Assembly: GCF_046105845.1 (NCBI RefSeq)
Contig: NZ_CP151004.1
DNA length: 64,000 nt
Source of the DNA: Escherichia coli
GTDB taxonomy: Bacteria; Pseudomonadota; Gammaproteobacteria; Enterobacterales; Enterobacteriaceae
Reading direction: 5' to 3' (one strand)
Part shown: piece after piece, positions 54,363 to 54,599 of the stretch
Position numbering within the stretch: the first letter of the stretch is position 1
How the letters are laid out: every line of letters begins with the position of its first letter
The notes under the pieces: model-generated
Database searches by the model: none
Seen by the model: only the letters and a program-made list of their open reading frames with translations
What the model was told of the DNA's origin: nothing
Made by a program: the position numbers and the translations under genes

Positions 54363-54512
54363 CCTGAATCCTCTCGAAAGTGTGTCACTTGGGAGAGCGC
54401 CCCGACATTTCCCGCGTCGGGTCACACGTGTAATTGTTATTGGTTCTTTTTACCGGAGAGCGGCTCCGCCTTACCCGGCCGACATAGATTTATTCCTGTT
54501 CACGTACAGATT

Positions 54513-54590
54513 GTCGGATGCAGCGTAAACGCTTTATCCGACCTGGATTCGCGTAGGCCGGACAAGACGCGCAGCGTCGCCTCCGGCATG
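54513..54590. repeat. Pair of REP elements (BIME-like) between gabT and gabP
   Basis: gtcggatgcagcgtaaacgctttatccgac and inverted catgccggaggcgacgctgcgcgtcttgtccggcctac match the REP consensus. Confidence 0.7.
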
Positions 54591-54599
54591 GGTACGGAT

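Follow-up and report, generated by a model that had tools for sequence, protein, structure and literature searches.

A known REP cluster in the gabT-gabP spacer of Escherichia coli, best described as one unit of an atypical BIME plus an older, decayed REP

The REP sequences of malE-malF and hisJ-hisQ are intercistronic. In structural terms, a REP is an imperfect palindrome of 30-40 nt that has a GTAG tetranucleotide 5' of its foot and a mismatch in its stem, and BIMEs are pairs of REP and iREP joined by linkers (Ton-Hoang 2012, PMC3333891). Three kinds of the latter are distinguished, namely BIME-1, which combines z1 and y over a long linker with an IHF site, BIME-2, which combines z2 and y over short linkers in tandem copies, and atypical BIMEs, which are chimeric and multicopy and of which the copy number per locus differs among strains (Ton-Hoang 2012, PMC3333891). 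Binding and cleavage by RAYT/TnpA-REP need the GTAG as well as the stem mismatch (Ton-Hoang 2012, PMC3333891). With respect to function, roles in stabilising mRNA and in attenuating transcription have been shown for PU-BIMEs (PMC2267715), the stabilisation of mRNA by intercistronic REPs going back to Newbury et al. 1987, as cited elsewhere, and a REP whose distance from a stop codon is below 16 nt reduces the translation of the upstream ORF, according to what is relayed of Liang 2015 in PMC12306157.

The REP cluster considered here lies between gabT and gabP in a stretch of DNA of 64,000 nucleotides, the whole of which was analysed and is called the window in the following. The window comes from an Escherichia coli strain other than K-12 and has the MG1655 gene order glaH-lhgD-gabD-gabT-gabP-glaR, with a gabT gene that is collinear with MG1655 gabT b2662 (63 differences over 1281 nt). 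The coding sequences and the spacer are as follows.

57342..55894, minus strand: gabD, from the list of open reading frames
55880..54600, minus strand: gabT (4-aminobutyrate aminotransferase), from the same list, with the stop codon TAG at 54602..54600
54363-54599: gabT-gabP spacer, 237 bp, of equal length in MG1655, where its equivalent is found at 2794016-2794252
54362..52962, minus strand: gabP (GABA permease, 466 aa), with its ATG at 54362 (MGQSSQPHELGGG...)
52959..52279, minus strand: csiR/glaR, flanking gabP

A longer version of gabP that starts with GTG and reaches to 54425 was rejected as an over-extension, as both the K-12 annotation and the N-terminal sequence put the start at 54362. 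In the passages of PMC5217608 that refer to Metzner 2004, csiD-ygaF-gabD-gabT-gabP is given as a single operon with extra internal promoters near gabD. A scan of the minus strand from 54200 to 54800 returned neither a terminator-like nor a sigma-70 promoter-like site, and the combination of a GC-rich hairpin and a U-run that marks an intrinsic terminator does not occur in the spacer on that strand over the same range. Elsewhere, the window harbours a tRNA cluster (28072-28796) with an RtT-like sub-threshold match inside it (28268-28378), the MicA sRNA (31710-31781, 83.9 bits) and a further tRNA (62778-62850); the tRNA and MicA features fit the K-12 map around gab-luxS-gshA-argQZYV-serV.

Along the transcript, the gabT stop codon TAG is followed by 12 nt, REP-A, 6 nt, REP-B, 28 nt, REP-C, an A/U-rich stretch, a leader and finally the gabP ATG. 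The parts that make up the cluster are the following.

54588..54599, minus strand: post-stop spacer between the gabT TAG and the foot of the REP-A hairpin, 12 nt, AUCCGUACCCAU
54553..54588, plus strand: REP-A, z1 class, with GTAG at 54553-54556 and the stem at 54557-54587 (inverted repeat I3)
54547..54552: linker between REP-A and REP-B, 6 nt, tail-to-tail, the GTAG end of REP-A facing the degenerate tetranucleotide end of REP-B
54512..54546, minus strand: REP-B, y class, with the tetranucleotide CCAG instead of GTAG and the stem at 54513-54542 (inverted repeat I2)
54484..54511: linker between REP-B and REP-C, 28 nt
54451..54483, minus strand: REP-C, a decayed y-like unit with GTCG instead of GTAG, in the same orientation as REP-B

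The 237-bp spacer of K-12 MG1655 has the same REP architecture. The cluster is therefore real and correctly identified, and it is already known, given this identical layout in the K-12 reference. Moreover, three REP sequences were reportedly described in the gabT-gabP spacer by Niegemann et al. in their 1993 account of the gab cluster, which would match REP-A, REP-B and REP-C.

The assignment to classes rests on class sequences from Nunvar 2010, of which the z2 consensus and the variable positions were filled in. When these were compared with the 64-kb window by blastn-short, REP-A matched the z1 consensus with 86.5% identity over 37 nt (E = 1.8e-6) and REP-B the y consensus with 84.8% identity over 33 nt (E = 1.1e-5), while REP-C matched the y consensus over 17 nt at 88%, which is not significant by itself (E = 0.22). 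On this comparison, REP-C is too decayed to be called from its own sequence, and it is the positional orthologue in Citrobacter described below that supports it. On the transcript strand REP-A reads GCCGGAGGCGACGCUGCGCGUCUUGUCCGGCCUAC, i.e. the gab mRNA carries its inverted form (iREP, ending in CCUAC), whereas REP-B reads CCAG-GUCGGAUAAAGCG-UUUA-CGCUGCAUCCGAC-A, in REP orientation, and REP-C reads GUCG-GCCGGGUAAGGCGGAGCCGCUCUCCGG-UA. As RNA, the three units are predicted to form hairpins of -20.3 kcal/mol (REP-A, z = -1.9, with single-nucleotide interruptions in the stem), -16.9 kcal/mol (REP-B, z = -4.9, with a 2x2 internal loop) and -13.7 kcal/mol (REP-C, z = -0.6).

The units of the spacer are thus imperfect palindromes of 30-40 nt that form stem-loops; a mismatch or bubble in the stem is found in REP-A and REP-B, and these two also match known classes, z1 and y, respectively. 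Many dispersed extragenic copies exist as well: at megablast sensitivity, a two-unit query taken from Escherichia albertii matches individual E. coli genomes at a median of 5 places and at 14 at most, and the cluster itself is situated between two coding sequences. The GTAG tetranucleotide, in turn, has been kept only by REP-A. As it is present both in the extra REP-B copies of Escherichia sp. E1V33 and E. albertii and in the Citrobacter orthologue of REP-C, the REP-B and REP-C units of the window have to be regarded as decayed. Four other REPs were found in the window by the consensus scan, at 4310-4335 (minus strand, z2), 9285-9308 (minus strand, z1-like), 18126-18155 (plus strand, z2) and 40437-40465 (plus strand, z1). 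A strict degenerate REP pattern of 36 nt, allowing up to 3 mismatches, gave no match in the window and is too strict for copies as diverged as these. Likewise, the MG1655 record NC_000913.3 holds no REP or repeat_region feature over the 49 kb from 2770000 to 2819000, and since the homologous window has several REPs, this gap in the annotation is not evidence of their absence. In the Rfam comparison, REP-B resembles naRNA4 (RF02564, an RNA derived from REP325) with 37.5 bits and REP-A with about 22 bits, both short of the gathering score of 59.5; REP-B is the sole naRNA4 match at E <= 1 in the entire 64-kb window, and this likeness reflects shared REP ancestry only.

An earlier, sequence-only reading had proposed a BIME-like pair of oppositely oriented REP units at 54480-54599, located inside an operon and between gabT and gabP. 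That the two units are opposed and BIME-like is borne out by their z1 and y class matches, both being imperfect palindromes and not chance similarities, and the setting was likewise recognised correctly, the locus being the csiD-lhgO-gabDTP operon. The proposed range does hold both units (54512-54588), but the rest of it consists of the linker at 54484-54511, the 12-nt post-stop spacer and the last 4 nt of REP-C; and while two opposed units are indeed present, to speak of a pair overlooks the third unit, REP-C, which for the most part lies outside that range.

With regard to the BIME types, the IHF consensus WATCAANNNNTTR could not be found with one mismatch or less anywhere in 54363-54599, the linker between REP-B and REP-C included, nor did the consensus scan reveal a z2-class match in the gabT-gabP spacer. 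Consequently, the cluster is neither a BIME-1, for which z1 and y are present but are joined tail-to-tail by a linker of 6 nt that has no IHF site, nor a BIME-2, for which the z2 unit is missing. It does combine y and z1 with short linkers and a number of units that varies among genomes, as in atypical BIMEs, a call based on unit classes, linker lengths and copy number. The gabT-gabP cluster therefore appears to be best described as one unit of an atypical BIME, with a copy number that varies across the genus, plus the older, decayed and y-like REP-C. As to its origin, we infer that the cluster would go back to repeats that are non-autonomous and on which the REP-associated tyrosine transposase TnpA-REP/RAYT acts.

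In the predicted equilibrium fold of the transcribed spacer, REP-A and REP-C are the two strands of a long helix of some 30 pairs, corresponding to inverted repeat I1, with REP-B as the apical hairpin. This composite fold has a free energy of -65.6 kcal/mol as opposed to -54.6 kcal/mol for three local hairpins, and mean pair probabilities are 0.86 for the long-range pairing of REP-A and REP-C and 0.99 for REP-B. The sequence-only reading was right in opposing REP-A to REP-B, but the thermodynamically favoured partner of REP-A is REP-C, which it did not recognise; the short distance of 12 nt between the gabT stop codon and REP-A escaped it as well. The composite structure covers 54451-54588 of the window on the minus strand, is about 140 nt long and is REPIN-like.

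As a function, the sequence-only reading suggested a possible stabilisation of the upstream transcript or an attenuation of gabP. This is the standard role of intercistronic REPs, and the anatomy of the gab spacer is compatible with it, given its stable hairpins, the lack of a terminator- or promoter-like site and REPs that are conserved in comparison with 4-fold degenerate sites (see below). By analogy, the reading that we favour, and that we hold to be probable rather than assured, is that the cluster as an atypical BIME gives rise to transcribed hairpins which protect the gabD-gabT segment of the mRNA and uncouple gabP from it. The spacer would be transcribed within the gabDTP mRNA and its REPs would fold into stable hairpins, and these structures would block 3'-to-5' exonucleases after a trigger that might be either an endonucleolytic cleavage or a Rho-dependent termination further downstream of the REPs. 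The gabD-gabT segment would then be protected, with the gabP mRNA decaying independently, and expression of the permease would thereby be lowered relative to that of the enzymes. Possibly, REP-A might in addition act as a mild translational brake on gabT, as the gabT stop codon and the start of its stem are 12 nt apart, which would put it into the class of REPs that lower translation. As for published data, neither gabT nor gabP has an entry in the supplement text of the 3'-end study of Adams 2021, the supplement to a paper on Ribo-seq under acid stress contains no usable values for either gene, and a full-text search for gabP together with REP found nothing relevant.

The number of units at this locus differs among relatives. 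The [z1+y] unit is present 3.0 times in Escherichia sp. E1V33 (2088-2354 of the extracted locus), with a period of 89 bp and 92% matches, and the [z1 iREP + y REP] unit twice in E. albertii (2173-2500 of the extracted locus); in both, the extra y copies keep GTAG, and the linkers equivalent to that between REP-A and REP-B measure 5-7 nt in these tandem arrays. A single [z1+y] unit is found in the window, in K-12 and in E. whittamii, and one lineage labelled 'E. coli' (L009) has lost most of REP-B and retains approximately half a unit. Outside the genus, Citrobacter werkmanii, C. youngae and Citrobacter sp. Cu233 have an intact orthologue of REP-C, GTAGGCCGGATAAGGCGGAGCCGCCATCCGGCA, placed identically with respect to the gabP leader, and this intact REP at the same position indicates that REP-C is older than the [z1+y] pair. 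Salmonella diarizonae, C. amalonaticus and Citrobacter sp. FP75 have a pair of iREP and REP in the spacer, and REP-free spacers of 121-141 bp occur in Citrobacter sp. R56, Pluralibacter, Shimwellia and Hafnia. Four other Escherichia lineages likewise have 12 nt between the gabT stop codon and REP-A and a fifth has 11 nt, and among all relatives with a REP directly after gabT this distance amounts to 11-15 nt. On the metagenome contig OMEV01002265.1, unrelated DNA without gabT adjoins the gabP leader precisely where the 3' edge of REP-C would be expected, a junction which suggests a rearrangement breakpoint at the REP.

Within the species, the 237-nt spacer, used as a query, matches at up to 99.6% identity in 5396 of the 5426 complete genomes of E. 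coli, and the REP allele is present with a coverage of at least 80% in 4086 of the complete genomes. A further 1304 complete genomes (about 24%), including BL21(DE3), O103 and O111, have an alternative spacer instead, which lacks REP-A and REP-B.

1265-1574 of each extracted locus, BL21(DE3) and O103: alternative spacer allele, 310 bp

This allele has kept the ancestral-looking segment GTTGCTAA.GGAATGAT.ACGATGCAGTAAA, which is shared with the REP-free outgroups, and carries an insertion rich in CCCTC/GAGGG runs with a 70-nt core that is itself dispersed, occurring at a median of 3 places per genome. The dispersed repeat may be BoxC, a known E. coli repeat family; an Rfam search with it gave chance-level matches only. 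Since about a quarter of E. coli genomes thus carry a spacer without REP-A and REP-B, any effect of this pair is dispensable. When the E. albertii two-unit query was run against E. coli, with rows sampled evenly across the match ranking and overlapping pieces joined, all full-coverage matches listed spanned 234-237 bp, i.e. one unit. The alternative allele is also present in Pseudocitrobacter faecalis; there, as well as in a Pseudocitrobacter MAG, GabP shares 99% identity with its E. coli counterpart, which points either to a horizontal transfer of the gab region or to assemblies that are mis-assigned or contaminated.

These distributions bear on the rival that survives best, according to which the REPs are a neutral or selfish passenger, tolerated insertions at a permissive site with no measurable effect on gab expression. 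We regard it as rather unlikely. In its favour, the number of units is polymorphic, from 0 in the 1304 genomes and about half in L009 to 1, 2 and 3, Citrobacter sp. R56, Pluralibacter, Shimwellia and Hafnia manage with their REP-less spacers of 121-141 bp, the same site took up a different dispersed repeat in the alternative allele, and GTAG has been lost in REP-B and REP-C. The last point, like the fact that several Enterobacteriaceae are REP-free here, also counts against the reading that we favour. The pattern of substitutions argues the other way. In a comparison of the window with K-12, in which the 4-fold degenerate sites of gabD, gabT and gabP served as a benchmark (86 of 713 changed, 12.1%), 16 of the 237 spacer positions differ. 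By part, the post-stop spacer is the most variable (5/12), REP-A is unchanged (0/35), REP-B and REP-C have two differences each and the leader has one (1/63), and the two in REP-B amount to a single compensatory exchange of a G-C for an A-U stem pair. Taken together, the REPs are changed at 4 of 103 positions, significantly fewer than at the 4-fold sites (p = 0.011), as is the leader (p = 0.006), whereas the spacers and linkers (11/71) evolve at an about neutral rate. Across five Escherichia lineages, 12 of 103 REP columns are variable as compared to 149 of 383 4-fold sites (p = 4e-8), the corresponding figures being 8/59 for the linkers and 3/63 for the leader. By these counts the REPs are not evolving freely, although the constraint is not specific to the hairpins, as the linkers, too, are conserved in the five-lineage comparison, and a low rate of substitution could also stem from gene conversion among REP copies instead of selection at the locus. 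Besides a substitution rate significantly below that of the 4-fold sites of the flanking genes and a compensated stem change, it also speaks against a mere passenger that stable hairpins in an mRNA would hardly leave exonucleases unaffected, and a protection of the gabD-gabT transcript segment by the REP hairpins remains the reading that we prefer.

Protection of gabD-gabT would act via RNA stability. By contrast, the 237-nt untranslated spacer and its BIME might cause partial termination before gabP by polarity, as a Rho-dependent attenuator. An association of BIMEs with attenuation of transcription has been described, REPs are said to play a direct part in Rho-dependent termination in some cases (Espeli 2001, as cited), and the spacer is indeed long, untranslated and devoid of an intrinsic terminator. 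However, it contains no 60-nt window that is C-rich and G-poor, C being about equal to G throughout, which is a weak test of composition, and base pairing is predicted for most of the spacer; we consider such an attenuator improbable.

Equally doubtful in our view is a far-reaching interpretation of the two alleles, in which the spacer would represent an old balanced dimorphism, with about 75% REP and about 24% other repeat, and the REP allele would be a genuine expression switch resulting in heritably different ratios of GabT to GabP. Under this scenario REP-A, 12 nt past the stop codon, would brake the termination of GabT translation by stalling ribosomes and engaging trans-translation, and the gabP mRNA would become uncoupled from the gabDT mRNA through the composite REP structure. 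If true, the utilisation of GABA or glutarate would differ among lineages. Finally, a role at the level of DNA, in which the BIME would be bound by IHF, DNA gyrase or HU with consequences for supercoiling or the nucleoid, or would be a source of naRNA-like RNA, is very improbable, for although PU-BIMEs interact with gyrase and IHF (PMC2267715) and naRNA4 shows a weak similarity, 54363-54599 contains no IHF consensus even when one mismatch is allowed, the lack of a z2 unit sets the cluster apart from the gyrase-bound BIME-2 type, and the naRNA4 match of 37.5 bits is far below the gathering score of 59.5.

Apart from the REP cluster and outside of it, a conserved gabP leader with two hairpins occupies 54363-54430 on the minus strand.

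54395-54425, minus strand: hairpin P1, with 3 pairs showing compensatory changes among 12 aligned enterobacterial sequences
54371-54397, minus strand: hairpin P2, the 3' arm of which is the Shine-Dalgarno sequence GAGAGG, paired with CUCUC

P2 is invariant in the 12-sequence alignment and tolerates a 13-nt loop insertion in Shimwellia. Conservation of the leader reaches from Escherichia to Hafnia, its sequence does not differ between the two spacer alleles of E. coli, and its substitution rate is the lowest in the region. It has no Rfam match, and a covariance model built for it found it only upstream of gabP and failed to find it in Salmonella diarizonae and C. amalonaticus; a scan of metagenomes for the leader added almost no new diversity. 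It may serve as a translational operator or stabilise the 5' end of a processed gabP mRNA, and it is the more interesting feature of the spacer when compared to the REP cluster.

Taken alone, the cluster is of little weight, as few repeats of E. coli are catalogued as well as REPs and BIMEs. The gab locus is nevertheless a convenient natural test bed, with REP and REP-free alleles in E. coli and two to three tandem units in sister species, and this set of alleles allows for a test of whether intercistronic REPs tune the ratio of enzyme to permease and of the rule that concerns REPs less than 16 nt from a stop codon.

Compared with described systems, the units of the gab spacer share with the REP/PU elements of the y, z1 and z2 classes their form as imperfect palindromes of 35-37 nt, their extragenic location, the internal mismatch of the stem and, in REP-A, the GTAG; they differ in having CCAG (REP-B) and GTCG (REP-C) in place of GTAG, and in the foot of the REP-B stem, where GTCGGA/TCCGAC replaces GCCGGA/TCCGGC by a paired change. 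With atypical BIMEs the cluster has in common REPs of alternating orientation, short linkers, the combination of y and z1 without a long L linker, and an 89-bp unit that occurs 1 to 3 times. In the canonical unit of Ton-Hoang, however, the REPs stand head-to-head, whereas the z1/y pair of gab is single and tail-to-tail with the GTAG ends facing each other, and contrary to a BIME, REP-B and REP-C follow each other directly instead of alternating. REP-A and REP-C are reminiscent of a REPIN, being inverted copies predicted to form the long helix of about 30 pairs, but the arms differ in class (z1 and y-like), have a third REP between them and are complementary by only some 76% in the 17-nt seed.

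The closest functional parallels are the intercistronic REP stabilisers of malE-malF and hisJ-hisQ, where REP hairpins are likewise placed between an upstream gene and a downstream gene for a membrane transporter, with no terminator. In the gab operon it is the enzyme genes that stand upstream and the permease gene that stands downstream, and the corresponding role of its REPs is proposed by analogy with these two cases. To the REPs that lie 15 nt or less from a stop codon and lower translation of the upstream ORF (Liang, Rudd and Deutscher 2015, as relayed elsewhere), finally, the gab cluster is linked by REP-A, the stem of which begins 12 nt after the TAG of gabT.
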